DNA of 64,000 nt from Massalongia carnosa. Its lineage: Eukaryota. Shown here piece after piece: positions 1 through 57,500 of this stretch. A program made the translations under genes and the position numbers. The stretch covers positions 496,001 to 560,000 of the forward strand of contig OZ287078.1 in the NCBI GenBank assembly GCA_965645245.1. The letters are read 5' to 3'. Every line of letters starts with the position of its first letter. Positions within the stretch are counted from its first letter, which is position 1. A model generated the notes under the pieces. The model was not told the DNA's origin. It did no database searches and saw nothing but the letters and a program-made list of their open reading frames with translations.

Positions 1-159
1 CTACGCGTAAGAGTGCTCAAGTTTTTGGTGTCCTGGTTTTTTTGTCACTAGTTACCTAATAGGGACATTATTACCTAATATCACACCGCTAAACGGATTT
101 CGGAATGAAACGGTCAACTTTTTCCCAAACAAGCCTATTTCCTCCACAGAATTCATGAA

Positions 160-794
160 ATGAGTCGTCGCCCTAACCCCCGCGCTGCAGAAAGTGATGC
201 CGCCGCCTCGGAAGCAGCAAAGGGTGCTCTAGCAGGGGCTGCGAAGGTCTGATTAACTCACCCATTTAATTTAGTCCCCTCACACGACAGCGCCTCTTAG
301 CTCCATCCCCCATTCAGCCTTTTCTTATGTCTCCGAGAGAGAGTATCTTCGCATCAATGGCGGCATAGACTCGCTAATATCCCCGATGGTTGTGTAGCTC
401 GGTCTCTTTGCGGCGGTTCTGGGCGCGGCAGGATATGCATTCTCTCCGCTATATAGAGGGGTAACGGTGCAGTTCAAAGTGTGCGAAGCTTGATTCCATT
501 GCCTGTTCATGGGTTTCTCTAGCCTCTAAATCCCACCACCCTATCTCCTAACTATATCTAATACCTACTAGCTTCATTCAGCTCTCATTTATGACGTTGG
601 GTGGCATGATCGAAGCCGATCGGCGACTGCGGGGATATGAAATCAATGTGCGGCGAGAGAACAGAAGGAGAGTAGACGAGGCGGTCTGGAAGCGGTGGGA
701 AGAGATGCTGGAGGAGGAGCGTAATGGGGATGGAAGTACGAGGGCAGTGGAAGATCGTACAGGGAAATTGAAATGTGAGGAAAGAGAGGAGTAA
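160..794 (+). CDS. Small conserved fungal membrane protein, 3 exons (160-246, 398-480, 572-794); HIG1-like topology, function uncertain
   Basis: ATG 160 and GT-AG introns 247-397 and 481-571 splice into one frame: MSRRPNPRAAES...AAK/LGLFAAVLGAAGYAFSPLYRGVTVQFKV/FIQLSFMTLGGMIEADRRL...; two hydrophobic segments. Confidence 0.7.
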
Positions 795-1780: not shown

Positions 1781-2367
1781 GATGATGATGATGATGATGA
1801 TGATGATGTATTCATACTCCGATATGACACAGGCCGTAGGCCGGCCCATGCGGGCAAAGCTATCTAAGTTATGTTACATGGAAAACCTTTCACAGGTGTA
1901 AAAACCATATCCCTTGATACCCGTCCGATGTGACTTCGGGTCGACGTCGGGCGGGAGACGCAGTGCAAAAGACGTGTGGGAACTGTAATGCCTTGTGAAA
2001 AGAGAAGAAAGAAAGAAAGGTTCAACTATTGTTGATTGTACAATAATGTTGATGCTAGTGAGAATTGATTCAATAAGCCTGTTTTCATTAGCCAAGCAGT
2101 TAGTATCTTCAGAGTTTTTGATGATTCGGTCAGCTACTGATAGTTGCTCGTGCCGGCGGCGCGAGACATCTGTTCTCTATTGTCAATAAGTCTGCAGAAC
2201 CCAGCCACATGAGCAGGCCGGTGAGGTGACGGAGGGCACCCTTCGCTTGTAGAGGAAGTCAGCTAACCCGATCTTGCCAGTGCGGATTTGTGTTGTTAGA
2301 GCGCTTTCTGCCTTTTTTAGCTGCGTGAGCCGTTTTGTGTGCTATGGAGGGTTCGATGACGCAATGC
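1781..2367 (-). mobile_element. 5'-truncated Tad1-clade LINE relic with (CAT)n tail
   Basis: Minus strand encodes an ORF2 C-terminus, LKKAESALTTQIRTGKIGLADFLYKRRVPSVTSPACSCGW...WLMKTGLLNQFSLA, with an internal deletion and a stop; (GAT)n tail at 1781-1808; 12-bp TSD GGCTCTTATCTT at 1769-1780 and 2368-2379. Confidence 0.88.
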
Positions 2368-8250: not shown

Positions 8251-8928
8251 GCGGGTTGAGAGGGGTGATCTCGTTGGACGGAACTCTAGCGATAAAAAAG
8301 TCACCTTACGATAAAATTATCGATTGTGGCCTTTGGTAGAATAGGTAGGAATACCTCGTTTTATAGTATACTGAGAAGCCCCCAACCGCAAGGCAGCCCT
8401 ATAAAAGATAGTGGTAGGACAGAATCAATAATTTCTACTTCTTCTTAGCCTTACGGACTCGACCCCTTCCTTCTCTTTTCATCATTTTCCTTGGGCGAGG
8501 TTCGTTTCCCGTTCACGCTCGCGCTGCTAAGTAGCTCGGTAAATTCCCATTCATCCATTCATTCAGTCCACACATACGACCACACACCGTCTCTCCTCTT
8601 TCGTTTCGTGTTCTTTTACTCTTTATTTTTCTTCTTTACTATCTGGAAGAGCGTGATGGTAATGGATAGTGTCCCGGCCCCGGGTTGGTTGGGGGGTGGG
8701 GGGGTTGTTGGGTTAGTATTAGGGAGGGGGGGAGAGAAAGGTAGGTTGGATAAGGGGAATAGGGGGTGCAGGGAGGATATTTGGGGGGGGAGGAAAGGGG
8801 TAGTATTGTAACCTATGCAGAACTGAGGATGGGGAGATGTGGTGGTTGTGAGGGGGACGAGGGATGGATTGGCGTTAGGGTTGGCGTGCAGCTGTCTGTA
8901 TTTCTTTCTTTATCTTGACTTATCTTGT

Positions 8929-8986
8929 CTTGCCTTGCCTTGCCTTGCCTTGCCTTGCCTTGCCTTGCCTTGCCTTGCCTTGCCTT
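8929..8986. repeat. (CCTTG)n pentanucleotide microsatellite, about 11 units
   Basis: Perfect tandem TGCCT array read directly. Confidence 0.95.
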
Positions 8987-9181
8987 ACAGACTCACGTCA
9001 TGTGTTCTATTTCCTTCGTCGTTCATAAAGAGGATGATAGAGCAAGTGAAGAGAAAGAGTAGACCGACGCAAGGACGCAAGCGAGTAGGGGGAAATGGAC
9101 GAGTGTGGAGAAAGTTGAAAAAGTGGGCCGAAGTAGAGGAATGGAAGGTAAGATGAAAGAAGAAGAAGAGGAAGAGGATGT

Positions 9182-10240
9182 TCAGGCGAGCACGATAGCG
9201 AAATTATTCCGTTTCCCGCCTGGACGCAGTTCGATTTTCCGGAACTGGTGCTTCGCTCCCGCTGCGGTTCTCTCATCCTCCTGATTACATTTTGCAGCGC
9301 CACCGTCATTCACCAACACCTTCTTCCCCCCGCCTTTAAAGGTCCAAAGAAAATACACGAGCTTCGCCCCCATTTTCCGTCTCGCTTTCACGTATCCCAG
9401 ACTCTGCAGCATGGCCTCGAGGCGGTCCTCGTCTAGGTACCTGGAATTTGTCACGCAGGGGGCCGGGAGGACGAGGAATAACGCGGGGAGAATTGCGCTT
9501 TCTGTCTCTGGAGTATCCTGTCCTCCAGCACCGGTGACTCCTCCCATGCCAGCAGTAGTAGCAGCATGATCACTAGGATTATCACATGAAGCATTGTGGA
9601 AAGATGTAGGCGGCCGCAAAAACTCCGCCACGCGCCGCAGCATCGCGCCTCGACTCGCAGCATCCCCCACATAGTTCAGCACTAGGCTTAAACTGATAAT
9701 GTCGACCCGCTCCGCTGCACAGGAGGGAAGCGGCCGCTGCATGAAATCCTGGGTCCTGATCTGCGGGTGCTGCGAGTGCAGATCGATTCGCTCGACCTCG
9801 AACCGCGAGCTGCGCGAACAGGCATTGTCGACTTTCAGCGCGCCGACTTCCAGCATCTTGATCTTGCCCCCCCCGCCGCTCCTGTTCATCCAGCCCGCTT
9901 GCTCATTCGCGTTATGATTGCCCCGCCGGGAAAGGAACTCCTCCACCCATGCTCTCAGCACCATGCCTGAGTCGCCGCCTCTTTCCGCTGACTGCCCCAT
10001 CAGGCTCGCGCACTGGTAGAGCGCTAATCCGCCATGAGCGGAGATCTGCGACTGCAAGGAAGCGGCGAGGGCGGTGTCGTGCACCTGGAGGGCGGCGGAG
10101 AGGCGTTTTTGGAGTGTATGGTGGGTGCGGATAAGGGCGCGGGTTGCGTGGGAGGAGACCGGTTTGGGAGTTATGATGGGGTGGAAGTGGTAGGGAGGGC
10201 GGGAATGCGAGAGGAGTGGTTTTCGGCGGTTGGGAGGCAT
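9182..10240 (-). CDS. BMT2: 25S rRNA adenine-N1 methyltransferase Bmt2 (alternative upstream ATG at 10312)
   Basis: RALIRTHHTL, GGLALYQCAS, RGGDS, LEVGAL, RIDLHSQ...QDFMQRP, SLSLVLNYV, VLPAPCVTNSRY, RNNFAIVL. Confidence 0.9.
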   Translation of the reverse strand: MPPNRRKPLLSHSRPPYHFHPIITPKPVSSHATRALIRTHHTLQKRLSAALQVHDTALAASLQSQISAHGGLALYQCASLMGQSAERGGDSGMVLRAWVEEFLSRRGNHNANEQAGWMNRSGGGGKIKMLEVGALKVDNACSRSSRFEVERIDLHSQHPQIRTQDFMQRPLPSCAAERVDIISLSLVLNYVGDAASRGAMLRRVAEFLRPPTSFHNASCDNPSDHAATTAGMGGVTGAGGQDTPETESAILPALFLVLPAPCVTNSRYLDEDRLEAMLQSLGYVKARRKMGAKLVYFLWTFKGGGKKVLVNDGGAAKCNQEDERTAAGAKHQFRKIELRPGGKRNNFAIVLA

Positions 10241-10329
10241 TGATTTTGCTAGGTAGAATGGAGAGGTGGTTGATAAAGAAATTATGGTTGGTGGTTGGCG
10301 GGGATTCTGCATAAGTGTTGGAGTAGATC

Positions 10330-11513
10330 TAGCGTTAACCCGAATAGGAAGGTAATTCCCTTGGACTCGGTACCGGTTACAAGAAATAGTTTACCAGGTT
10401 TACGCTCCTTTGGCGCAGCAAATTGATATTCATTAGGCATTGTTATACCTGTGCTGCCACCTCGTTTAGCAGGACAGGACAATGACGAGATATAATCAAT
10501 AATATATTTGCGATCAGCTTGAAGAACAGGAGATGGGCGAATGAAGCCAGACGAGCTATCGCCTTTATGGAGCAGGGAGGCACCTGCCTGAGGCTACTCG
10601 ATCGCAATAAAACGTAATAAGGTGAACAACTGAAAGGGGACGACGCTGGTTAAGCCCTTGTCGATGATCCTATCAGGGTTTAATCATTTGGTCCTCTGAT
10701 TTTTGGAAAGGAAAAGGCCTGAATGATATTCGCGGAAAGATATACCCTCTAATACTGTCATTTTCGTCAACAATAATATTCTGCAGGGCCAAATCGTCAT
10801 GTGATACCACGAAAGGGGATTCTTCGAGGGCGCGATGAACATATTTGTATTCTAGAGCTCAGCGAATATAGCCGATTTGCCAGCTCCAACAAAATACTCA
10901 TCATCTGACTGAGAATCTTTTCCCGGCGCTCTCGAGTCGGTATGTTGCTTGATCGTTTTAGCGGTTTTCCGTGGTACTACATCAAGACCTTATACGGCCA
11001 TCCTATGGGCTTGCAGAACGTAGTGTTGAAGCAAGCAACTTTGGGTGACCATTGGAATCCACTTCATTTCAGCCCATGCAAGATTTTAAATTATCTCTCA
11101 ACATTGTTTTTGATAGAATCGTGTAATAGGTAATACGCATGCGTTGGCACGCGAACAGCATATACCTTTTTGTCTTGCTGGATAGAATAGATAGAGCGCT
11201 CCTTCCCGGAGTACGGAACGACTGTTATGTCATAAAGGAAAGCGGCGGCGTCGTGGCCATTTTTGGCGAAGATATCAAGGACGCACTGCGGATGGATCGG
11301 CCAGATGATCATTTTCACCCAGGCTTGATAAGTGTTCAGGATTGAACTGCTTCGATAAATCGTGCTTGCAGAGCTTAGGAGCTTATGATTCCGTAGTTTC
11401 CACACACCTAAATTAGCAATAAAATCAGGTGATCGTCGGCTCCTAGCTCCGTAGTTCAATAATACTACTCTTTGGTTAAATAAGATCCCTCTTGCAATTC
11501 TCCCCGTCATCAT
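10330..11513 (-). pseudogene. Degraded aminoglycoside-phosphotransferase / choline-kinase-like gene
   Basis: YAVRVP, then in-frame stops; PFVVSHDDLALQNIIVDENDSIRG (10745-10818) splices to IIDKG, a degenerate HxDLxxxN...IIDW kinase motif; boundaries approximate. Confidence 0.65.
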
Positions 11514-11607: not shown

Positions 11608-13601
11608 CTATCGCAGTGGTTTGCAGAAAGCCTTGGTCAGCCTTTGTTTCAGCATCTCCATGAGTTCTTTATTCCGAGCCTTCTGCTCTTCCATCTGCTC
11701 CATAAGCTCCGCATGTCGTTGCTTGCTCTCTTCCCTCTTCTGAGCGAGCTGTTGTTTGCTCTCTTCCCTCTCCTGAGCGAGCTGTTGCTTTAACCAGTCA
11801 ATCTCTTGCTGAAGCATGGCTGTGGGTCTTAGTCTTGGCCTTTTGGACCGCCCTGTGGCCTGAGACGAAGTTTCGCTTTCCGTCATCTCTTGGGAATTAG
11901 GCTCGATCTCATTCTCACCGCTAGCATTTGACATGGATAAACTGGTTGGGACTTCAGATCCCAAATCGTCTGGTAGAACATCGATAGCTTTACAGATCCA
12001 TTCCAAATGCTTCGGCATCCATAGTTCGTAAAGATTCTTTGTAAACTTATAGGCCGTCCATTTTTCTTTTCCGTTCAAATCCGTCAAAAAAAAGTCTCGA
12101 ATGGGATAGCGATAGTAAGTCGTTGTGTCATCCTCAATCACGGGATAATGGCCATATATTCTCACATTCTTGTCGTCGTGTGAGATTGAAAAGGCAAGGA
12201 TTTTTCGATGAACCTCTCCTTTCCAATAAAACTCATTTTCCCATTTTGCGTATTTATAAAGCTCGACAACGGCTCTTACGGCATGGGTCATGCTATGAGC
12301 GTTTTGTCGATCGGCAATATCTAAGGCGGTAGCACCGCATTTGACCTCACATGTAAGGAAAGGAAAATACATTCTCCAAGTGGCCATGAAGTAAGAAAAA
12401 TCTGTAAGGCCGATATAAATGTTGACCAACGAAGGGCTTGAGCTTCTTAAGTTGCTCATTCGTGAATGCGGATTGACCGAATGCTACCGAGTAATCGGGC
12501 TGTGGACGAGGATTGGTGACACAAATAGCGCTATTCCAACCTTTGTTAACACTTTCGACCAAATGTTCGAGACAAGTAGCACCGCATGTAGCCAGACTTT
12601 CCGCAGAAGGAACAATCAGTCGAGTGATATCTTGAAGAACCCTTGCTTCGTTTTGGTTACGAATTTTTAAACAAGCCGTTTTGAATCGATCGTCGCGAAA
12701 TATCGAGTCTTGGATGACGGTTTGTGCTGAATCTAGAAGTACTTGACAAAGGGTCTTGCTCTCATCTGTAGTATCCAAATCTGACTCGCGCATAAAGCTA
12801 CCTTTATTTGCAAGTTCGGTTTCATAGGCTTCGCTTGTGTATGTGGCACTTTTTGCTTCCCTCGGTAGATCACAGGATGTGTCGACCCCAAATTCGGAAG
12901 CTTTTTGAGCGAGAGAAGTTGAGGACCATTTTCTTGCAAGAAGAGGGTGAGCCATCTTATTCCCTTTCTCAGCTCGCTGTTTATCCCACTCTTCCTGTTG
13001 TTGAACTTCTTCAATATCTTCCCAAACTTGCTTGTTATGATCGAAATATTTCTTAGGCCAGCTCCATTCCTGAATCCAATGATCGATTGAATGATGGTCT
13101 TTGGTTATGTTCTCGACAGCTGCTTTATCGTCAACAACACATCCGCTAGATGCGATTCGCAGACATTTCTCTGAAAGCCCTTGGAAAGATTCCCCTTCTT
13201 GTAATCGTTTCCGCTTGTGCTCAAAATTACGATTCGCTTCAAGTTCTTGCGGCGGGTACGCTTGTTGAACAGCCTCAGATTTAGGAGAAATCGGGTTATG
13301 TTGCTGAGACTTAGTTTAGTAAGCTTGAGAATAAAGCAACGAACGAGAGATAGTTAATGTATTTCTTTACTGACAGTATTTATTGATGTTGAAGATGAGA
13401 GATATCTTAATTCGCTGCCCTTCCCTTCGAGTGTGCTTTGCTCTTGAGCTTTTGCTGATCGTACGCTCCTACGGAGGAATTCTTGTGGCCGCTTTTCTTT
13501 AATCGTTAGGTAAAGTAGCCAGGTACTTGAAGCATTTCTTTCTTACCTTTAGCTTGAGGCCAAAGGTTCTCGGTGCTCGGTTTCGCTTGACTACGAGCCA
13601 T
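11608..13601 (-). pseudogene. Fungal PD-(D/E)XK-nuclease-like protein (DUF7924-type) with one frameshift near 12425
   Basis: MARSQAK... start at 13601 with introns; HWIQEWSWPKKYF, PRPQPDYSVAF, then after a +1 shift YFPFLTCEVKCG...ADRQNAHS, ILAFSISHD, RIYGHY; C-terminal 33-bp coiled-coil repeats (KQQLAQxREES). Family name recalled, not searched. Confidence 0.75.
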
Positions 13602-15588: not shown

Positions 15589-17739
15589 CCCTCTCGCTGT
15601 TACCCAAGCACCCCCCTCCCCAAGCTAACCATTATTAGCTAGCTTCCGCATTTAGCAAGTTTGAATTAGTCATGCGAACATCAATTTTTTCTTGACTGTC
15701 ATTGAACCTCATTCAATCAATTTAGACCTCGTCAATTGCTGTCTTTCTATATACGGGATTTTTACTGTGATTATGGGGCTCAACGAAGAAGAAATCCCGA
15801 GTGTTTCAGACAAATCGCCAATCTCAGCGAAGTAGCATAAAATAAATCGCAAAAGAGGTGTCCAAAACATCTTGATCGATATTCCGTCTACTTCCTCTAA
15901 ATATACCCCTATTCGTGTTATCAACAGGCCTTTTGTTCCATTAATTGAAGACATTGCTCGAAGTCCTCTGGAATTATTTCAGTTGTTTATAACAAGGCAG
16001 CATTGTCGCATCATCGCATATCATACCAATATCAAAGCACACGACTACATGGAGGAGGAGAAGGAGAAGAATCATCGAAATTGGACTGATACTACTGGCT
16101 CGGAAATAGAGGTGTTTTTGTGCATAATACTTCTTATGGGTCTCGATCGTCTACCTGCTACAGAAGATTATTGGAATCAACGCCCGGACAAGCCAGTCAT
16201 CATGCCTATTCAGTCCGCTATGTCGCTTTATCGATTTCAACAAATTAAGCGATTTTGAAAATCAACAATGGGCGAACAGAGCCTCCGGGACTGGGCAAAG
16301 GACCTGATTGGTGGAATAAACTAGAACCGTTGGCCACTGATTTTCGAAAGGCCTCGTTGAAACATTGCATACCAGGAAGCAATATTTCTATAGATGTACA
16401 ACTGGTGCTATTTAAAGGCCGATCTCGACACACCATGCAAATCGCTACTAAAAGTGCTCACAAAGGATTTAAAATCTACAGCCTGTCAGGATAATTATTT
16501 GTTGTCGTTTTTGTTTGCCTCCAAGACTAGCAAAATAAGTCAATTGAAAACAGCTAAACAATTGGGATTTTTGATGAAGGACGGACTAACTGTCAGTGCT
16601 TTGGTGGTGATTCAGTTATGTAAAGAACTTCCATCCTTTCTAGATTATCATCTTTTCTGTGATAATTTCTTTACTAGCACGAAGTTATTCAAGGCACTTC
16701 GATCAATCGGAATAGCTGCCAGCGGGACTGCTAAAAAGGGCTCAGGCTTTCCAGAAGAATTGCTGGCCATACGGGGCGTCACCTCAAAAGGAAAAGACTG
16801 GGGCCTACAAGCACATATGGTGGTCGATGATGAGGTGCTTTGTATGGGCTGGGTGGATAATAATGGGGTGCAGTACATGACCACCGGCCACACTCCCCAG
16901 GACCTGAACGAAATACACTATATAAATCCATACAAAAGGCATGGAATTCCTGAGACCTCAATTCAACCGATTGTACCATATTTCCCATCAACTCTGGCTC
17001 ACTTCTCTCCTTCGCCCAATCAAGCGGTCCAATAGCCCCTTGGATTACCAATACCAGCCCCAATCAGAGATATAACCTCTATATGGGAGGGTCGGATGGA
17101 AACGCTCAGCAACGAGCGGTTTATTCATACGATCGTCGTACGGATCGTTACTGGTGGCCTTTATTCATTTTTATATTGGATGCAGTCGGACTGAACGCGT
17201 TTAAACTTTACTCGATGAACTCTTTCCACCTCGAGGAAAAAAAGCTTACTCGTTCCAAGTTTCTTCGTCAGATTGCCCTCGAATTGGTGTCAAATCAAGC
17301 GGGCATCAGGCCCGTTCCACCAAAGGTAAGCATTAACACCGCGATTGATGCTTTAGTAGCACCTCCCGTTCATCATTACGTTCGTCTTGAAAGAAAACAA
17401 AGATGTATGCATTGTAAAGTCAACAAAACACGACCTTCAAAGCGAAAGGGACAGCCACTGACTGAAAGAGATGTTAATGGGCGAATAAAAAGGCGAAGAG
17501 GTGCTCAGACTATATGGGCTTGTGGAGGATGTCATCCAATCAGGCCCTGCTGTAGAAAAGCCAATTGTTGGGAAGCTATTCATATGAATTGGGACGAGTA
17601 AATGATATAGCTATAAATTTGAACTTCTTTGTAAATAGGGGTAATCAGGTTCACATTGATTGGTCAGATAATTAAGATTTAGCGCTTCTTAACCAATAAT
17701 GGTTAGCTTGTGGGGGGGGCTTGGGTAACAGCGAGAGGG
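15589..17739 (+). mobile_element. piggyBac-family DNA transposon with a pseudogenised transposase
   Basis: TIRs CCCTCTCGCTGTTACCCAAGC...CAAGCTAACCATTATT and its reverse complement; transposase 15773-17601 with SIDxQLVLFKGRS, DNFFTS, MGGSD and a C-terminal Cys-rich domain; stop near 15833 and frameshifts near 16255, 16486 and 17070. Confidence 0.93.
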
Positions 17740-48511: not shown

Positions 48512-49839
48512 CACGCGGGGGACAAAAAAAAAACTACACCAAAATTTAACCGGGTTCAACCCCCCACCAAAACACAAGCAATTTCCATACAATTTTGATG
48601 GGATAATCACCATTTCAACAACCAGTCATCCAATTCATTCAATCTATTCAATAACCAGTCATTTTACCCTCACCATCCAAAACAGCTCTCAATCTATCTG
48701 GCATAGTAGACACCCGTTCATTGATAAATGCCTGGGAAACGTTCGCCCACCCCTCATAAATTAGCCCCTTGGTCGTATCATCATCCCAATGAGGATATTT
48801 TTTTAAATATTGCTTCGGGGCCTGCCAGCAATTTTCTATGGGGGCCAAATCAGGTGAACATGGACAGTTGAAATAGTGCTTCAGATCGTTGTTCTGCTTC
48901 CAAGTGCGTACAATGTTTGATTTGCCTGGTCCATGTCCAGAATCACCGTCTTCTTCTAAGACGAAATCGTGTTTTGCTTCAATCCAGGGCTTCACAATAG
49001 GCTCCAATATAGAGTCGATATAGACTCGTTGACTCATCTTTCCATTGGAGTTTCCAGGAACTCTGTAAAAGTAGATATCTGACTTGAAGTCATGACCTGC
49101 AGCAGCCCAACAGTGATGTCTCTTCTTGACGGCCTCGTCTGGTTCATCTGCTTCTTGAATACAATCATGACAATAACGTTCACCTAATCTTCGTATGATG
49201 CGTAATTTGCCCTGAGGTCCCCATCCAAAGTGCACTTCGTCACTAAATCGAACTTGTTTCCAGTCTTCTGCATTTGGATATCTAGAAAGCATAGCATCTG
49301 ACCACTTCATACGAAGCTTTCTTGTCTTCTCGTTCACCCATCCCTTTCTGCACGCAATGCATTTGTGATAATCCATGGTGCCCATGATTCGTTGAATGGT
49401 TTTGCCACTGCAGTCTAGGCCTACTTCGAAGCCCAATTGCTCCCATGTAAGAGCGCGCGCCTCCATACCTTCTTCTTCCAATAGCCGTTCCATTTCTCTA
49501 ATCAATTTAGGCGTAACAATTTTGTGACGCCCACGAGCTTCAGAAACATCGGAATTATTATGATGACGGCGTGATGAGGCTCCTTCACGCAGGTATGCAT
49601 AGCCCCTCGTACGTTCCACATCAAATGTGCGAAAAACATCCTCTTTGTGATAAGAAATGCCTTGCTTTTCGCAAAATTCAACGGCTCCCTGAATTTTAGC
49701 TTTGGTAGGAGTCTCGATATGTTTAGAATTCATAATAATGATAATTATCCCATCAAAATCGTATGTAAATTGCTTGTGTTTTGGTGGGGAGTTGAGCCCG
49801 GTTAAATTTTGGTGTAGTTTTTTTTTTGTCCCCCGCGTG
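48512..49839 (-). mobile_element. IS630/Tc1-type DNA transposon (1328 bp) with ~103-bp TIRs, CAC..GTG ends and 5-bp TSD
   Basis: TIR CACGCGGGGGACAAAAAAAAAACTACACC... at 48512-48614 and 49737-49839; TSD GATGG at 48507-48511 and 49840-49844. Confidence 0.93.
48648..49733 (-). CDS. Intact DD37E transposase (DDE_3-like)
   Basis: RFSDEVHF...LEEDGDSGH...SPDLAPIENCW; 37 residues between the second D and E. Confidence 0.9.
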   Translation of the reverse strand: MNSKHIETPTKAKIQGAVEFCEKQGISYHKEDVFRTFDVERTRGYAYLREGASSRRHHNNSDVSEARGRHKIVTPKLIREMERLLEEEGMEARALTWEQLGFEVGLDCSGKTIQRIMGTMDYHKCIACRKGWVNEKTRKLRMKWSDAMLSRYPNAEDWKQVRFSDEVHFGWGPQGKLRIIRRLGERYCHDCIQEADEPDEAVKKRHHCWAAAGHDFKSDIYFYRVPGNSNGKMSQRVYIDSILEPIVKPWIEAKHDFVLEEDGDSGHGPGKSNIVRTWKQNNDLKHYFNCPCSPDLAPIENCWQAPKQYLKKYPHWDDDTTKGLIYEGWANVSQAFINERVSTMPDRLRAVLDGEGKMTGY

Positions 49840-49848
49840 GATGGCTAT

Positions 49849-51989
49849 CCCTTCGTCTGGCAATTTGGCAGCCATTTAGGTAATATTCAATTTTACACGC
49901 GCCGTCTCCGGGTAATGACTAATAACTTTAATCTGGCCAATCAGATTTTCCCTTTTCAACGATAATGGGTACAACACCTCAATCACCCCTCATGATCTAT
50001 GTAAAATTTCCCAACATGCCTCCTTTTTGCAACATGGTCCACAGCTCTTACATTGCCATCTGGTCTGACTTGCACGTCGTCTTTTGGTGCAATTTTCATC
50101 AATTTCCGCAAGTGGTCGGCGTCGTTTGAGTCTTGGCACTTGCCTTTTGCAGGCCAAACAATAGTCCTTCTTATTCAAATGCTCCCATTTGCAAGTTGAC
50201 TCGACGTCTTTATTAACGTCTTGATTAGTAGTAACTATGACATCTGTCGGACGTTTCCGTAGGGCACCGGCTTGATTGGATAGTAGGGCATTTACTATTT
50301 CTTTTTGAAAGTCCAAATGGCTGAGTGTTGAATTCGGATACAGAATTCTCCACAATTTGAAGGCATTTAGAACGGCTGCATCCAGAAGAAAGATGAAAAT
50401 TGACCACCAGTAGCGACGATCAGATCTTTGAGGTGAATAATATGCTCTTTGCTGAGCATTCCCATCTGACCCGCCCATGTGCTGGTTATATTCCACGATG
50501 GGCATGGGAAATGGAAGCTTTTCTTTTTCATCATCAACGATGACTCTGGAATTTGCAGGAATTCCATGACGTCGACGGGAATTCTTGTAGAAAGAAGTCT
50601 TCAAATCCTCAATTGTATGAACCGTGGTCATGAATTGCACGGTGTTTAAATCCACCCATGCCATACACAGAATGTCCCCGTCATCAATGTTTGATTTTTA
50701 CTTTTATTTGCAGGTACCGTCATCAATGCCTTCTTTCCCCAGTCCTTATTCTTGGTGGCTGCAACCCTCAGACGTAGAAGATCAACAGGAAAACCGCATC
50801 CTGCATTAGCCGTCCCACAGGCAGCAATTCCAATGGTTTTCAGAGCTTTGAATAGCTTCGTATTTGTGAAGAAGTTGTCCAGAAAGATGACGTATTTCAA
50901 GCCTTCATCAGACGGTAAACTTCGAGCCAGTTGAATGACGACTAGGGAGGAAGGAGACAAATCCCATTTGGTTGTCGGAAATTTCAATTGTCCAGGCGTT
51001 TTTAACTCACTAATTTTGGACACCTGTCTTGCAATTAGTACGATGCAAATTGAGGCCTTTTCTACTCACCTTGGAGGTAAATAAGAAGTCAAAAAGATAA
51101 TTTTCCTGACATAAACTATAGATTTTGAAGCCTACACCAGCCGCCTTGGTGGCTATTTGCATAGTATGGCAGCTCCTACCCCTGAATAAAATCAATTGCT
51201 CGTCAACTGACACATGACTTCCAGGAATCCAGTATTTCTTTGATGCTTTTCGAAAGTCTGTGGCCAATGGTTCCAGCTTTTTCCACCAATCAGGGCCTCG
51301 AGTATCAATGATCTCATCTTCGTCGGGGTTGGATATCTTCAAAAATCGCTTGAGTTGCTCCCATCTTCGAAGACTCATGGCTTGAATCACCATGTCATGT
51401 ATGGCAAATTTAGGAGACGTGTTCCAATAGTCAGTAAGACGTGGCATCAGTGTATACCCCATATATAACAGACTTCCCAGAAAAGCTCCTACTTCAGAAG
51501 AAGAGGTGTCATGCCATTGACGTCTCTTGATGTCGTTTAGGGCATACTTCTTTTTCGCTTTAAGATTGGTGTTTTTAGCTATGATTTCAAGCATTTCAAA
51601 GCTAAAGAAGAGGCAGAATAAACTGAAAGGAGTCTGATTTATCAAGCGCAACGTCTCGTCCGGCTGTGGTTTTCGAAATGGAATCGAAATTGGACAATAA
51701 TTTGATGACGGAGGGGGCATGGAGTCAATTATGCTTTGTACGCTGGGTTTATTCTTTTTGGCCTGTTCTTTCAGAATTGAGGGGGGCAAAGCGTCTGATT
51801 GGTCAGGAACTTCTATCTCAATGCCTCTCATGATTATTCTAAAGAAATTGTAGATGTTTTAATGATTTTCAACTGATGTTTACCTTCTTATTTACAAAAA
51901 AAGGTGAGAATGTTTTGAAGTTCGCGACTCAGCCCTACGGTATCTCACTAAGCCTATTTAAGGTGGCTGCCAAATTGCCAGACGAAGGG
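49849..51989 (-). mobile_element. piggyBac-family transposon, second family; transposase with one intron and one frameshift
   Basis: TIR CCCTTCGTCTGGCAATTTGGCAGCCA and its reverse complement; transposase 49990-51831: SVDEQLILFRGRS, intron 51024-51069, LDNFFTN, frameshift at the T5 run near 50697, YNQHMGGSD, Cys-rich tail. Confidence 0.93.
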
Positions 51990-52102
51990 ATACAGTACTA
52001 GGCCAAAACTCTGCGGCCCCGCACCCCACCAACATTTCAATCATTCTATTCAATCAACAATCAACCACGTCACGATTGCTGAAATGTCTTGAAACTTTAC
52101 AT

Positions 52103-53384
52103 GATGATGATGATGATGATAATTCATTCTCGATGTGGCACCGTCCGAAGGACGGCCCATGCGGGCACATCTATGGGGCTATATACAGGGGTGAAAAAAC
52201 CTTACGAGGTGACAAAAACCCTGTGTTTCAACACTCCATCACCGACTCCTAGGGGCCGGAACGGATTCGGACGTCTATGCGGACTGCATGACCAGAAAGA
52301 AAAAGAAATGGCACGATGAATCGCGCACTATGGTCAGGGTAGGGACTTTTTTGAGCCTTGGTCGTTTTGATCTCGAATCGTTATCCAGCGGGGACTCAGC
52401 GGAAGACCCCCGTATCCCCTCCGAGCCGGGTCATCCAGTAGATCGAAATCAAATCCAGATGTATTCCTGCTCCCACTTTTGACTGTTTTTGTGTGTCTAT
52501 CGCCCTCGACATGCCTATCGCTGCTCGTACGTGTCGATGTCGTCACCTCTATCCCTTCAAGTCGACCGAATGTGCATACGCCTTCGTTATAAGTCATGGG
52601 TCAGATGACCTCGTTGCATCCACCTCGAAAACCATGGGTCAGAGGCCTTTCCGAGAATAATAAGGTAGAGAAGTGCACCTTCCACCAGGCCTCAATACCG
52701 TGTTGTAGTTTGACCGTTCTTCGAAAAGGACTAGGGCACCAAGCTTGTAGAGTAGCAAGGACTATTCCTGAAGTCATATACGTACACCGGCCACGGTGAG
52801 GTCGTCGGTGACATAGCCGTCACAAACGAGCCCCAACGGGAGTCCCTTATGCCTCATTATTCCTTTTCAGGCTGTACCGACTCGCCCGCCTTCCCATGTG
52901 CTCCCTCCGAGGACCCCTCGAGGCTGTGCCGACTCGTCCGCCTTCCCAAGCTCTTACTTCGATGGGAGCAATACTCTCGTGCTCTTTGGTGTGACCGAAA
53001 ACTCTGTTTTCCACCCGGTAAATCGCTTCGTAGTCGAATCGTAAACGTGTCGGCCCCCGTACGGGTACGAGGACTGTCGGGCGTCACCCCTTTCGCGTTT
53101 GTGGCAGTTCGACTCTTCCTCGACCCCCAGATTAGGAGCTACTCCTCCTATGACTGTGTCCTTCAGGAAACACCTCGAGAACTATGGCGTTTGTGGTTCG
53201 TTCTTTCGATACTCAACTTTCGTCGCGATGTGTGTGCTTTGGTGAAACCGCACGGAGTGCTCACCCACCCCCCGATTCACCTCCGACACCCACCCGTCAC
53301 CGAAGGGGAGAGAGACACTTGGCTCCTCTGGCAAGCAGAAGGTTCGTAGCCGGCACCGCGTACAGGTGGTCCTCGTTGCCAGCC
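52103..53384 (-). mobile_element. Non-autonomous non-LTR retroelement (SINE-like, about 1.28 kb) with a LINE-type 3' tail
   Basis: TSD (C)TTGAAACTTTACAT at 52088-52102 and 53384-53398; (CAT)n tail; 3' hairpins shared with the LINE at 1781; no RT-like ORF. Confidence 0.9.
53310..53384 (-). ncRNA. HDV-like self-cleaving ribozyme (predicted)
   Basis: GGCUGGC(P1) AAC GAGGACC(P2) ACC(P3) UGUACGC(L3) GGU(P3') GCCGGCU(P1') AC(P1.1) P4 hairpin CUUCUG/CAGAGG, J4/2 G-C-C-A-A, P2' G(U)GUC(U)CUC; begins at the element 5' boundary. Confidence 0.8.
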
Positions 53385-53444
53385 TTGAAACTTTACATAA
53401 TGATTACATACATACTAAACACGAATTCCCCCAAAAATTGATTT

Positions 53445-54530
53445 TTAATATTTAGTATACCATCCTTCCGACGCTATACACGCTTTTATCCTCCTACTCA
53501 TGCTCTCTATTAACCTCCTCATCATTTTCACATCTATCAACGTCCAGGCTTCTTCTAACGCTTTCCAAAGTACCTCACGAACAGTTTCATCACTGCCGCT
53601 CACCAAATCTATGTTCGGGTTGACTTGATAGACGAGCTTTTTGAGCACATACCAAACGTGCTCGATGGGATTTAAATCAGGTGGATAGGGGGGCCAATCG
53701 ATGACCTCTATGCCGTTCTCATTGAACCATTCCATCACCTTTTTAGCCTTATGTATAGGTGCGTTATCCTGCATGAAAATGAGGCCCGGTTGCCAAATTC
53801 CAAGCAGATTATCGTTCAATAATTCCATATATGAGTTCGCCGAGTACCCCGTCTTCTTCGCAGCAAAATCACGAGCTAATTTGTAAAGATCTGACCTGTC
53901 ATCTCCCCAAAAAGCTGCCCAGACCATGACACTGACTCCTTTGCCTTTGGGGACAGGTTGTATCATCTCTTTATTCCATTTTTCTTTCGGCAATCTGAAC
54001 ACCCACTGACGCTGTTTTCCTGACCCCTTTTCCACCGAGCACTCATCTGACCATATAACTCTTGACCACTGCTCAAAAGTCCACTCACGCCGCAGCAAGC
54101 ACCAATCCAATCGTTTCTTGGCCACCTCAGGCGTCAATAAAGGTCGTTTTTTAGCCACCCAGTTGGTTAAACCATACAGTTTGAGTGCCCGATAAATAGT
54201 CGTACGACTGCAGCCGAGCCCCACTTCTAGTTTGATTTGTGCATAAGTGATTCGTGGATTGATTCGTGCATGCTTGATGATATAACGTCGATCGCGTTCT
54301 GACAGCACTTCAGGCCGTCCAGAACGTGATTTAGACACGCCGTCGTTGCGAATTGAGTGCTTCTGAATGGTGCTCTGCACGGTCGATTTAGTGAAATTAA
54401 GAGTCTTCCCAATCTCGGTCGGTGTGTGCCCCAACGCCTGGGCCCCAACAATCATACCACGTTGATATGGCGTCAATTCAGTGTTACGAGGCCGATTACC
54501 ACTTATGGGGGTCAAAGAAGCACGAAGCAT
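53445..54530 (-). CDS. Tc1-type DD34E transposase
   Basis: N-terminal HTH, WSDEC, MVWAAF, FMQDNAPIH, DLNPIEHVW; 34-residue D-E spacing; the usual SPD reads PPD. Confidence 0.93.
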   Translation of the reverse strand: MLRASLTPISGNRPRNTELTPYQRGMIVGAQALGHTPTEIGKTLNFTKSTVQSTIQKHSIRNDGVSKSRSGRPEVLSERDRRYIIKHARINPRITYAQIKLEVGLGCSRTTIYRALKLYGLTNWVAKKRPLLTPEVAKKRLDWCLLRREWTFEQWSRVIWSDECSVEKGSGKQRQWVFRLPKEKWNKEMIQPVPKGKGVSVMVWAAFWGDDRSDLYKLARDFAAKKTGYSANSYMELLNDNLLGIWQPGLIFMQDNAPIHKAKKVMEWFNENGIEVIDWPPYPPDLNPIEHVWYVLKKLVYQVNPNIDLVSGSDETVREVLWKALEEAWTLIDVKMMRRLIESMSRRIKACIASEGWYTKY

Positions 54531-57500
54531 GGTGAAATGATGAGGTGGAAGATGGGGGTTTGATGAGTTGAAAACGCGAAATCACGAAAATTACGGGTTG
54601 GGCCGCAGACTTTTGGCACGGGACTGTAACTATTGTACAAGCAACCGACCTGTCCGAACGCTTACTTATGGATCGCCGCATTCATGTCTTGGAAGTCTTC
54701 TCTACATCTGACTAGGGCGTAATAACATTGGGTTTTTCGCAATGTATGAGTCTCGATTATAGATGGCAATTTCTTCAGACAGCCGATTGTTCCCAGCACT
54801 CTTTATGAAAGTCCGTGATTGGAGCATTCCTCATGCAAGACACAAGATGAGACATTCTATGTAATAAATCGACAGACCAATATTCGAAGCGCAAAGAGGA
54901 ATCAGATTAGCTGAAAAAGAAGATCTATCTCTACTACTATTCACAGAGCAACTTCTAAGCTGCAAATTTTTATCGATCTGCTTTGTTTCATTAGATCCTA
55001 CTTTTCATTATATAGCCCATGTGGTTGGATAGGTACATAGATAAGCAGACCGATTCGCTGAATCTTCCATATCAGGCGGAGAAGGGTTTCTACATCAACG
55101 TTGCCTTTTCGTATTTTCACCTCTTCACCTCTTCCCCCCTCTTTACCTCTCTCCAACTTAACCCCTTTTCCTATCTTATAAGGGTTCTCATTATGTCTCT
55201 AACCTTACACCTCCCTGCACCTCGCCGTGGTCACTAGATTCGATCAGAATGTCCTGTTGTCAAGTTTAAACCTGGAGTGGTCGATCTTTGGGTTGCGGCA
55301 AGGGAACCCGGTACGGTTGCGATGACAGCAGAAATGCCCAATACCTAGGGCTGTTTGACAATCATGTTGGGGGGTTGGCGTTAGCCGTTCGCATGGCGGA
55401 CTCAAAAGAAGAAGAAAAGACCATAATTATGGGAGTACTACCACCTAGGAAAGTGACTAAGGCAAAAGGTCGGTGCGCCGCCCTTTCAAGCCGCTTCAGC
55501 ATAATCCACTTTGGCCGAACATGGATTTCTCATGCTATAACAGCCCTGGCTCTGCCGCGTTGAGAACGTCTGGAACAGGATCCAAAAAAGGGGTTCAGTG
55601 ATAGGCTGTTCAACGATTTGCTCAGCAGGATGGCTGTGTCAAGCACGCCTTAATTAGGTCATAGAGCTCTAAGCAGACACGCTTGACACTGATCGTGGCA
55701 GTTCAAGGGCAAAATCCTGCTTCCTACGCGAAGCTCGCAATGTATGCCATGTAATTATTCTCAGCTATTCTTCTACGCGAGGCATCTTGAGAGTCAAGAG
55801 CAATAATTGAGTTTTCTTTATCATGACCAACCCTTGGACGGTTTATTCAAGCTGCTTTGTTCGAAACCCCTTTGTATGAGCCTTGCACATATGCTAACTA
55901 AATGGCGGAGTCTCAAGACATTTCCACACATTTATGGGAAAACATTCCAAGGGTGGGGGAATGTGCTATCGTTGCAATGCAGGGTTTATGCAGACAGCCA
56001 TTGTTGGGCGCTTACAGAGAGATCACACACATCACCCCTCTCAGATTTATCAATACACCAAAAAAGAAGCACTCTTCATATACCAGAACCAGCTTCATCG
56101 TCCGAGTCCGCTGGTAGATGATGGGCCTCACAACTGACAATCGCGTGCGGTATCATGGCCTACGTTTCCATCTGGTCATTCATGTGCAAGCCCTAGCATC
56201 GCTTTCACCAAGCGCGAGATTCTTTCGTTTCTTTGTTAAACGCTTTTTGCGAAGGGAATCCATTCTTGATTCTTCTTTGATGAATCGAGCAGTATCATAT
56301 GAAGCATTAGTTATAAAATAGAAAGCTATCGTTCATAAACGTTACATCATCAAGTGGCAACAGCAGTCCCTTTATATATCTCCTCTCGACTTCTCCTTTC
56401 GCCCACTCTGTATTAAAGACACCAGATTACGCAAGACGGCCCTGAAAAGAGCATGCACCTATGCTTTACCCTTAAATATAACTTTGAGATTTCTGACAGA
56501 CATGCGAAAGCAACAAACAAGCCTTTCCAAAACCCATCCACCAGGAAACTCATTTGCCTACATCGCTAGAGCGGAGCATACCACTTCCTACGCAAGTGCG
56601 TTATAGTCGCGGTTCCAGGTTAATTAAAAACTCTTCAAAGAAACTAAAACGAGCAAGTAGAAGTCTGATAAGACGAAAATAGTTCCTGCAGCTCGAGTGT
56701 TCAACCAAGACGGGGGGGGGGGGGGGGGGGTGGATCCTTACTATTAACTAGATTCCATAAATTCCTTGCGTCCAGGTTTTGTCAATCGCTTGAGAGCGCC
56801 ATTGATTGATACATGGTCGATCTTTCGAAGTAGGTATACTCCCGTTTTCTTAGCTTTTGCCCTAGACTCTTCGACCCGAGAAATAAATTATTCGCAATGA
56901 ACTTTAAATCAGCGAAAGAAAGAAGTTTTGCTGTGCTCTTAAGGGAAAAGGGGGGAATGGGGCCCCGCCCTGGCGCTGTAGCGGCTTAACCGCATACTCA
57001 TCCTGAGATCCTTCCCTTCGTATTCGCAAGGACTCCCGGGAGAACTCACAAGCTCTGAGGCACTTCCGCTTCGGTCTGAAGTTTCATCATCATCTGCCAA
57101 TGCTCCCGCCCAAGACGTCCCCTATCACACGGGCGAGGGGGGAGGGCCAGCATCTTCGTTTTCCCAGGCGTCTCAAGCAACGCCTTCCGGAAAGGTTCTC
57201 CCCTAGCGAGAATTAAAGCTGAGAATTGTACTTTTTTAAATGTTTTCGTAGAAGAGCGAGAAATTCTTAACAATTTTTAGCGCATAAGCTTCTAAGAAGG
57301 CAATTCTAGAAAACCTCGGGACCTGAAGAACGTTCCGAAGGTAAATGAGCAGATCATTATTACTCCCGGCCGAAAAAGCTGGTTTTACCAATGGCTAAAC
57401 TAAGCTAACTATTTCACGAAGGCGCATACCTTTCTCCTTACTATCTCTCTAGGCACCATACTATCAGGCCTTGAGCCGTTCTCTTACTCAGGAATGCTTT

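Follow-up and report, generated by a model that had tools for sequence, protein, structure and literature searches.

The DNA analysed here is a stretch of 64,000 nucleotides from Massalongia carnosa (GenBank assembly GCA_965645245.1, contig OZ287078.1, positions 496,001 to 560,000 of the forward strand), referred to below as the window, and the subject is a non-coding retroelement on its minus strand whose first 75 nt are predicted to fold as a ribozyme of the hepatitis delta virus (HDV) type. Features are collected in Table 1; positions are those of the window, and nt n of the element corresponds to window base 53385-n on the minus strand. The element lies inside a Tc1-like DNA transposon, the terminal inverted repeats of which are 83% complementary. 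The transposase open reading frame (ORF) of this host (53448-54581, minus strand) is open and encodes 378 amino acids with HTH_Tnp_Tc3_2 and DDE_3 domains. The retroelement is located between the transposase stop codon and the 3' repeat, co-oriented with the transposase and 61 nt downstream of the stop, in agreement with the initial annotation, which had placed it just 3' of this codon.

Table 1. Coordinates of the retroelement, its predicted ribozyme, the host transposon and the LINE copy within the window (TSD, target-site duplication; RT, reverse transcriptase; EN, endonuclease; LINE, long interspersed nuclear element; UTR, untranslated region)
Feature	Window position	Strand	Remarks
Whole non-coding retroelement	52103..53384	minus	1282 nt; direct repeat, empty site, without RT/EN
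Upstream TSD copy, ATGTAAAGTTTCAAG	53384..53398	minus	Sequence and repeat search
Downstream TSD copy, ATGTAAAGTTTCAAG	52088..52102	minus	Followed by ACATTTCAGC, joined directly to 53384 in empty-site contigs
AT(CAT)6 microsatellite tail	52101..52120	minus	Last AT overlaps the target duplication
HDV-like ribozyme fold (predicted)	53310..53384	minus	Element nt 1-75; pairings read from sequence
P1	53384-53378 with 53354-53348		nt 1-7 with 31-37; includes G1.U37 and U4.G34
P2	53374-53368 with 53318-53310		nt 11-17 with 67-75; U68 and U72 bulged
P3	53367-53365 with 53357-53355		nt 18-20 (A18-C20) with 28-30 (G28-U30)
L3	53364-53358		UGUACGC, 7 nt
P1.1	53363-53362 with 53347-53346		G22-C39 and U23-A38
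P4	53341-53336 with 53330-53325		nt 44-49 with 55-60; possibly also C43-G62
J4/2			C63 C64 A65 A66, immediately before the P2 3' strand
C63, putative catalytic cytosine	53322	minus	First base of J4/2 (CCAA)
3' module like a LINE 3' end	52103..52174	minus	Element nt 1211-1282: two small hairpins, terminal box ..CGAGAAUGAAU, tail
5'-truncated LINE copy	1781..2367	minus	587 bp: ORF2 C-terminus (frameshift, stops), 3' UTR, (CAT)n tail
LINE-copy duplication AAGATAAGAGCC	2379-2368 and 1780-1769		Flanks 1781-2367
Host Tc1-like DNA transposon	51991..54628	minus	2.6 kb; 29-nt terminal inverted repeats 51991-52019 and 54600-54628

A precise insert with a 14-15 bp TSD and a (CAT)n tail had been proposed, and the sequence itself, a repeat search and empty sites all agree with it. 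Contigs from public sequencing runs were aligned to window positions 51700-53800, and in run X3 the contigs of other Tc1 copies link ...GCTGAAATGT (52078-52087) straight to 53384, giving a precise empty site. The G at 53384 can be counted with either the duplication or the element; the 5' base of the element is 53384 or 53383, and the length of the TSD is 14 or 15 bp depending on the owner of this shared base. The repeat search stretched the duplication to 21 nt at 95% identity, an extension that arises because the target (ATCATTATG...) resembles the tail of the element. In the public runs, contig depth was many-fold greater over the Tc1 flanks than over the interior of the insert, and by the same measure the Tc1-like transposon is very high-copy in four runs.

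The window element is a non-coding, TSD-flanked retroelement of the non-LTR type (LTR, long terminal repeat), combining the TSD, the 3' repeat tail and the lack of an ORF that characterise non-autonomous members of this class. Its sense strand contains no stop-free frame longer than 93 aa, and six sense frames of 71-92 aa were without a Pfam match at E ≤ 0.01 and without an RT- or EN-like one at E ≤ 0.1. A tblastn comparison of two LINE ORF2 proteins with the element returned just a 9-residue match (E 1.9). Domain scans and tblastn thus bear out the proposed absence of an RT or endonuclease ORF, and the interior, inspected by the same means as possible decayed LINE coding sequence, holds no ORF2-type remnant. 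A 197-aa antisense frame (52756-53346, plus strand) was considered as a gene and, having 0 Pfam families, is treated as a chance open frame. The body also includes an imperfect tandem duplication at 52869-52962, with two 42-nt copies of 81% identity spaced by 52 nt.

A classical short interspersed nuclear element (SINE), driven by an RNA polymerase III (Pol III) promoter derived from tRNA, 7SL or 5S RNA, was considered and rejected. The tRNA search of the element found none, no Rfam RNA was matched, and the 1282 nt include six runs of T4 or longer. Pol III is terminated by such runs. The earlier label "SINE-like" therefore fails in the Pol III sense of the term, and by analogy the window element appears to act more like internally deleted or chimeric elements, such as the short internally deleted elements (SIDEs) and NARTc, than like a SINE.

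The 3' end of the element ties it to a LINE. Within the window, blastn gave a single other match, in which nt 1211-1282 align with 1863-1790 (minus strand) at 84% identity over 74 aligned columns, and this segment belongs to the 3' end of the 5'-truncated LINE copy. A peptide encoded by that copy at 2186-2341 (minus strand) has 27 protein matches at E ≤ 0.001; they include P0022 (1120 aa), with RVT_1 and two exo/endonuclease-phosphatase domains, and P0006, P0008, P0024 and P0025, with RVT_1, and in tblastn the C-termini of P0006 and P0022 fall on window 2038-2347. Since the fragment encodes an ORF2 C-terminus and ends in the same (CAT)n tail, this genome harbours a LINE of the apurinic/apyrimidinic endonuclease (APE) plus RT type whose 3' end matches. 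The element thus has its 3' end in common with an autonomous LINE of its own genome, and the LINE-derived 3' tail of the initial annotation stands for the last ~72 nt. The domains of the peptide matches place the presumed partner LINE in the APE plus RT type, and the label "Tad1" given to it earlier is a claim on clade that goes beyond these data.

At the opposite end of the element, nt 1-75 contain all five HDV helices in canonical order, with zero-length P3-to-P1 and P1-to-P1.1 junctions, and every pairing claimed beforehand was found. The nested minimum-free-energy fold of these 75 nt already includes P1 and P4. The G.U pair at the base of P1 marks the position of the predicted cleavage site, and the predicted +1 nucleotide is the 5' end of the element DNA. 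Compared with the genomic HDV ribozyme, the helix order is the same and the numbering is identical to position 39 (P1 1-7/31-37, P1.1 38-39). Features shared with HDV and CPEB3 are the G1.U37 wobble, an L3 of the type U...CG and a J4/2 of the type C-N-A-A before P2; the element differs from both in a P3 shifted by one base with a 7-nt L3, in a P1.1 of one G-C and one U-A pair instead of two C-G pairs, in its short P4 and in its setting at a retroelement 5' end. C63 is matched to C75 of HDV by its place, four bases before the P2 3' strand, and the choice of C63 over C64 as the catalytic base follows HDV geometry.

We then consider how often such a fold is expected by chance. A core descriptor (P1 with G.U, P3, L3 of 7-8 nt and P1.1) found 3 sites in the window, where 60 shuffles gave 3.6 per 128 kb, a frequency in line with a fold that resembles HDV by chance and sits on an ordinary retrocopy, 5'-truncated or chimeric; the lack of an Rfam match and the two bulges needed by P2 in the window copy point the same way. 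When the L3 motif U...CG was added, a motif of HDV and CPEB3 that was picked after the sequence was known, 53384 became the sole window match, against 9 matches in 300 shuffles or 0.03 per 128 kb, and this match sits exactly on the insertion boundary. The odds of a chance match within 1 nt of this pre-defined boundary are ~1e-6, or ~1e-4 without the L3 motif. A first "full" descriptor, which included P4, the C and a P2 of at least 6 pairs with bulges, was too permissive (2.0 matches per 128 kb shuffled) and was dropped. The assignment to an HDV-like fold by motif and model search accordingly held in part, in that the strict descriptor singles out 53384 in the window and no Rfam family does.

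Relatives of the ribozyme were sought in metagenome contigs with a pattern that fixed only nt 1-7 and 19-39, left position 30 free, permitted Y/R at positions 4 and 34 and treated the P2 5' strand as a free gap. The scan returned 20 loci which, judged by their flanks, are 13 independent insertion sites. Some sites are represented by several loci (L001 = L009 = L013; L002 = L006 = L014; L004 with L017 and L019; L015 = L020) and the others by a single one (L003, L005, L007, L008, L010, L011, L012, L016 and L018). Different sites have unrelated sequence in the 25 nt upstream of G1, and in an all-against-all blastn nearly all inter-site alignments begin at nt 1 in both sequences, none reaching upstream of G1; a few short alignments with L003, L007 or L016 begin at nt 11-17. 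At L001 and L008, where the duplication abuts G1 unambiguously, G1 is precisely the first base of the element. Five sites are flanked by exact duplications of 14-16 bp and three more by imperfect ones. The 5' stop at G1 anticipated for other copies was therefore found at 13 sites with unrelated upstream DNA, and the predicted cleavage site, which had been said to coincide with the 5' boundary of the window element at the TSD edge, is the common start at 14 insertion sites.

A covariance model (R1) scored 89.7 bits at the window ribozyme, a sequence that is itself part of the training set of the model. Over the window and the 20 loci (224,916 bases), R1 returned only the 21 ribozymes already known, and the descriptor returned the same ribozymes over the loci together with one likely chance match in L017. 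A different kind of relative was present in run X6, which carries a different organism label and contains just a minor fraction of the words sampled: a 1276-nt contig (record 28) matches 52449-53385 with 77 mismatches and 25 gaps, followed by ~360 nt that do not match. Judged by this alignment, it is a further copy of the window type ending at G1, ±1 nt.

To examine the fold across sites, the window was aligned with 13 rows (alignment A1; 14 rows, 13 distinct), leaving out L003, the P4 of which is interrupted. In 12 of the 13 sites GAA is followed by a P4 hairpin of variable length and sequence, by AGAG(C/U)CAAG and by a strand complementary to the P2 5' strand of the same copy. Pairs were counted on A1 with the pseudoknotted structure written by hand (338 cells), and 99.1% of the cells were paired, compared with 33-56% when the partner was slid by 1-3 columns. 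Eight pairs change on both sides, namely 4/7 in P2 and 4/7 in P4, and none of 500 shuffles reached the covariation score or the percentage of paired cells. P2 and P4 lie outside the search pattern and are the informative regions; the covariation expected of the stems was thus obtained for these two, P1, P3 and P1.1 having been fixed by the pattern. RNAalifold predicted P2, P3 and P4 unguided on A1.

The finer details of A1 fit the same fold. G1.U37 occurs in the window and all relatives (14/14 rows), at a position fixed by the pattern, and J4/2, a region outside it, reads CCAA in 13/14 rows. Every aligned relative has a single P2 bulge, at position 68. C17 and G67 are invariant, which makes a C17-G67 pair indistinguishable from an unpaired C17, and the P4 base (43-45 with 59-62) keeps its sequence and shows little covariation. 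Among the rows listed, contig variants of the window-type element fit the fold, G59A giving U45-A59 from U45.G59 and C54U falling in the P4 loop. RNAalifold also gave an alternative pairing of A1 columns 34-37 with 77-80 (window nt 34-37 with 61-64), in which the P1 3' strand GGCU pairs with AGCC; as modelled, this pairing could sequester the putative catalytic C63 and so represent an inactive conformer.

Considering the 13 additional insertion sites at which the module begins at G1, with P2 and P4 covarying, a chance origin of the fold is extremely improbable, and assembly duplicates as the source of the related loci are excluded by the different flanks and target duplications. A second alternative is that the conserved 5' 75 nt are mainly an internal promoter or a site bound by a protein, or combine two roles as the trypanosomatid Pr77 described below does, G1 being the transcription start. 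All 14 rows have conserved sequence in P1, L3 and J4/2, as conservation at the DNA level would give, and the lack of a consistent co-oriented upstream gene fits an element with its own promoter. We nevertheless regard this alternative as unlikely: P2 and P4 change sequence yet stay paired, which shows selection on RNA structure rather than on a DNA motif, and the HDV topology is complete, with its predicted cleavage site at the common 5' end.

Beyond the ribozyme, the relatives fall into groups. Their lengths are 641-901 nt and their tails (AC)n or (CAAA)n. One group comprises elements of ~640 nt with (AC)n tails (L002, L004/L017 and L005) and another elements of 850-900 nt with (AC)n tails (L008, L010, L011 and L016). 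L001, with 852 nt and a (CAAA)n tail, has its first 126 nt in common with L018 and its first 112 nt with L015, and the GGCCGGC-type loci L003, L007 and L012 have only ~45 nt in common. Similarity between the window element and any relative is confined to at most its first 45-86 nt (nt 1-71 with most of them). At least four groups of relatives therefore combine unrelated bodies with the same ribozyme, and with the (CAT)n of the window there are three tail repeats. No RT or EN domain was present in the 59 downstream sense frames scanned in the relatives; downstream of L007, L012, L015/L020 and L018, 48 sense frames of at least 55 aa gave none at E ≤ 0.1, and tblastn with LINE ORF2 against all loci returned nothing.

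These results bear on the origin of the element, which could be an internally deleted LINE (a strict SIDE), with the ribozyme and the body taken from the 5' UTR/ORF1 region of that LINE. This origin is compatible with the best explanation, set out below, and differs from it on descent only; the LINE-like 3' end agrees with it, and R2 SIDEs and NARTc are reported to have arisen in this way (PMC3414825, PMC4035085). However, apart from the final ~72 nt the body is unlike the last 587 bp of the LINE, and it is unlike ORF2 proteins; no ribozyme locus carries LINE ORF2 sequence, and the downstream sense frames scanned hold no RT or EN. Deletion of a single LINE would also not easily account for at least four groups in which the same ribozyme precedes unrelated bodies and three tail repeats, and we hold this origin to be possible but doubtful. 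An equally tentative proposal is that the HDV-like cassette may be a portable module for making 5' ends, captured independently by several unrelated non-coding bodies, while the LINEs themselves lack the ribozyme; the groups, at least four, with (CAT)n, (AC)n or (CAAA)n tails, would then each carry a mimic of a LINE 3' end.

Some further features of the related loci were recorded. The last 80 nt before the (AC)n tail in L002, L004, L008, L010, L011 and L016 contain a hairpin, a second hairpin and a box ..CCGAGUAGGAAU, and the first hairpin, NNNN-UAGC-NNNN, covaries between groups (GGCC/GGCC, GGUC/GACC and GAUC/GAUC), as read from the folds by eye. This arrangement is loosely comparable to the 3' module of the window element and, apart from the ribozyme, is all that the groups share; the box is conserved. 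In L007, the interval 8709-11195 (plus strand), from +1856 after the GGCCGGC-type ribozyme, encodes a copia-type gag, an integrase and the start of RVT_2. In L003, nt ~47-275 after G1 (locus bases 1-229, minus strand) belong to an insert with long inverted repeats, resembling a miniature inverted-repeat transposable element, which splits P4; the piece ends there, short of the remaining part of the ribozyme. L004 and L017/L019 are different records of one insertion site, and the ~5.5 kb that L004 has in excess from ~+1031 after G1 is a presence/absence polymorphism of another insert.

Taken together, we consider it very probable that the window element is a non-autonomous non-LTR retrotransposon made of a predicted ~75-nt HDV-like ribozyme head, a non-coding body and a LINE-type 3' module, the last being either a copy or a mimic of the 3' end of an APE/RT LINE that this genome also contains. 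According to this explanation, which is drawn from sequence, the element would be transcribed within a longer RNA from a neighbouring promoter, possibly that of the host Tc1, or from an internal Pol II promoter that escaped detection. The ribozyme would then cut directly 5' of G1, giving the RNA a defined 5' end devoid of flanking sequence, and the ORF2 protein of a LINE, presumably the APE/RT type seen here, would recognise the 3' hairpins, the terminal box and the (CAU)n tail. Annealing of the tail to a repeat-like nicked target would allow target-primed reverse transcription to run up to G1, and the outcome would be a full-length insert flanked by a 14-15-bp duplication. The tail repeat equals the first target bases, (AC)n elements lying at AC... 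sites and the (CAT)n element at ATCATTATG, which fits priming of reverse transcription by a tail annealed to the nicked target. The 5' module may in addition combine promoter and ribozyme roles, by analogy with Pr77.

Several observations weigh against this explanation. No Rfam model, those of HDV-type families such as HDV_ribozyme, CPEB3 and drz included, matched the window at its gathering score, or the interval 51900-53700 at E ≤ 10; Rfam models are narrow and unable to encode the pseudoknot. P1, P3 and P1.1 are invariant in A1 save for U4.G34 changing to C4-G34 in 2 of the 13 distinct rows, and they are uninformative on covariation because they were imposed by the search pattern. At position 63, the place of the putative catalytic base, L005 carries U (UCAA). 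The second P2 bulge of the window copy, U72, is missing from all 13 aligned relatives, and a copy with this extra bulge may cleave poorly. For 5 of the 13 related sites (L003, L007, L012, L015/L020 and L018), an approximate duplication search and a search for tail and terminal-box motifs left the ends undefined, L003 having just 275 nt after G1. The upstream context gives read-through transcription no support, the nearest frame of at least 120 aa within 3 kb being on the same strand in 5 of 14 cases, on the opposite strand in 6 and absent in 3; this orientation is no argument against read-through either, because the DNA around old dead copies does not have to be transcribed. The window-type element is apparently low-copy, its interior depth being far below that of the Tc1 flanks. 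Finally, the LINE is seen only as the 587-bp 3' fragment in the window, and none was found in the loci.

The closest functional parallels come from insects and trypanosomatids. R2 SIDEs of Drosophila are likewise non-coding and non-autonomous, and their 3' end, taken from a LINE, lets the protein of that LINE start target-primed reverse transcription (PMC3414825, PMC6765202). R2 and its SIDEs are specific to a site in 28S ribosomal DNA and are co-transcribed with ribosomal RNA, whereas the elements studied here are dispersed over 14 sites, have microsatellite tails and differ in having bodies unrelated between groups. NARTc, RIME and SIDER of trypanosomatids resemble them in being dispersed, short, non-coding partners of LINEs, and their 5' hallmark of ~77 nt (Pr77/L1TcRz) is an HDV-like ribozyme cleaving at +1 (PMC3185411, PMC4035085). 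Unlike the module described here, Pr77 belongs to another kingdom, has C as its +1 base instead of the G of G1.U37 and shares no Rfam-level sequence similarity with it; Pr77 is also a demonstrated promoter, demonstrably carried by L1Tc. On the best reading, by analogy with what these papers describe, a ribozyme-defined 5' end joined to a LINE-recognised 3' end would be the same working principle as that of R2 SIDEs and NARTc/SIDER (PMC3414825, PMC3185411, PMC4035085, PMC6765202).

Fungal HDV variants have been reported before, as the initial annotation noted, and were shown to cleave: Li and Breaker (2017) describe 230 representatives from 26 ascomycete species, two of them cleaving at the P1 base, with "widely variable gene associations" (PMC5640933). 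The variant has a hallmark C-G pair at the cleavage site, together with a further nucleotide, in most cases C, that separates P2 from P3 and an E-loop in place of part of P4 (PMC5640933). The present module has G.U and not C-G at the cleavage site in 14/14 rows, and its invariant C17 and P4 base GAAC...AGAG could match the extra C and the E-loop. That paper gives no biological role and "retrotranspos" does not occur in it, and "transpos" is absent from its three readable supplements (PMC5640933). Our literature search, with most subscription journals outside its reach and an earlier description therefore possible, found no link between fungal HDV ribozymes and retroelements.

The ribozyme-headed, LINE-tailed design, known from insects and trypanosomes, has apparently not yet been described for fungi. 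The results tie a predicted fungal HDV-like ribozyme by sequence to a concrete job, that of setting the precise 5' end of mobile LINE parasites without coding capacity at 14 independent sites, and would extend to fungi the R2 SIDE and NARTc/SIDER strategy of a ribozyme-defined 5' end. They also reveal a modular pattern, in which one ribozyme heads unrelated bodies that end in different tails. If the portable-module proposal were true generally, hundreds of "orphan" fungal HDV ribozymes would be heads of LINE parasites, which would give them a function.

The retroelement is surrounded by a nest of DNA transposons. A second Tc1/mariner-type ORF is located at 48651-49844, within 48651-51858 (minus strand), and piggyBac-like DDE_Tnp_1_7 frames are found at 49993-51858 (minus strand) and 16394-17598 (plus strand). 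Elsewhere in the window, two overlapping DUF7924 frames at 11611-13315 (minus strand; E 4.5e-63 and 1.6e-31) are probably one gene interrupted by a frameshift or an intron.

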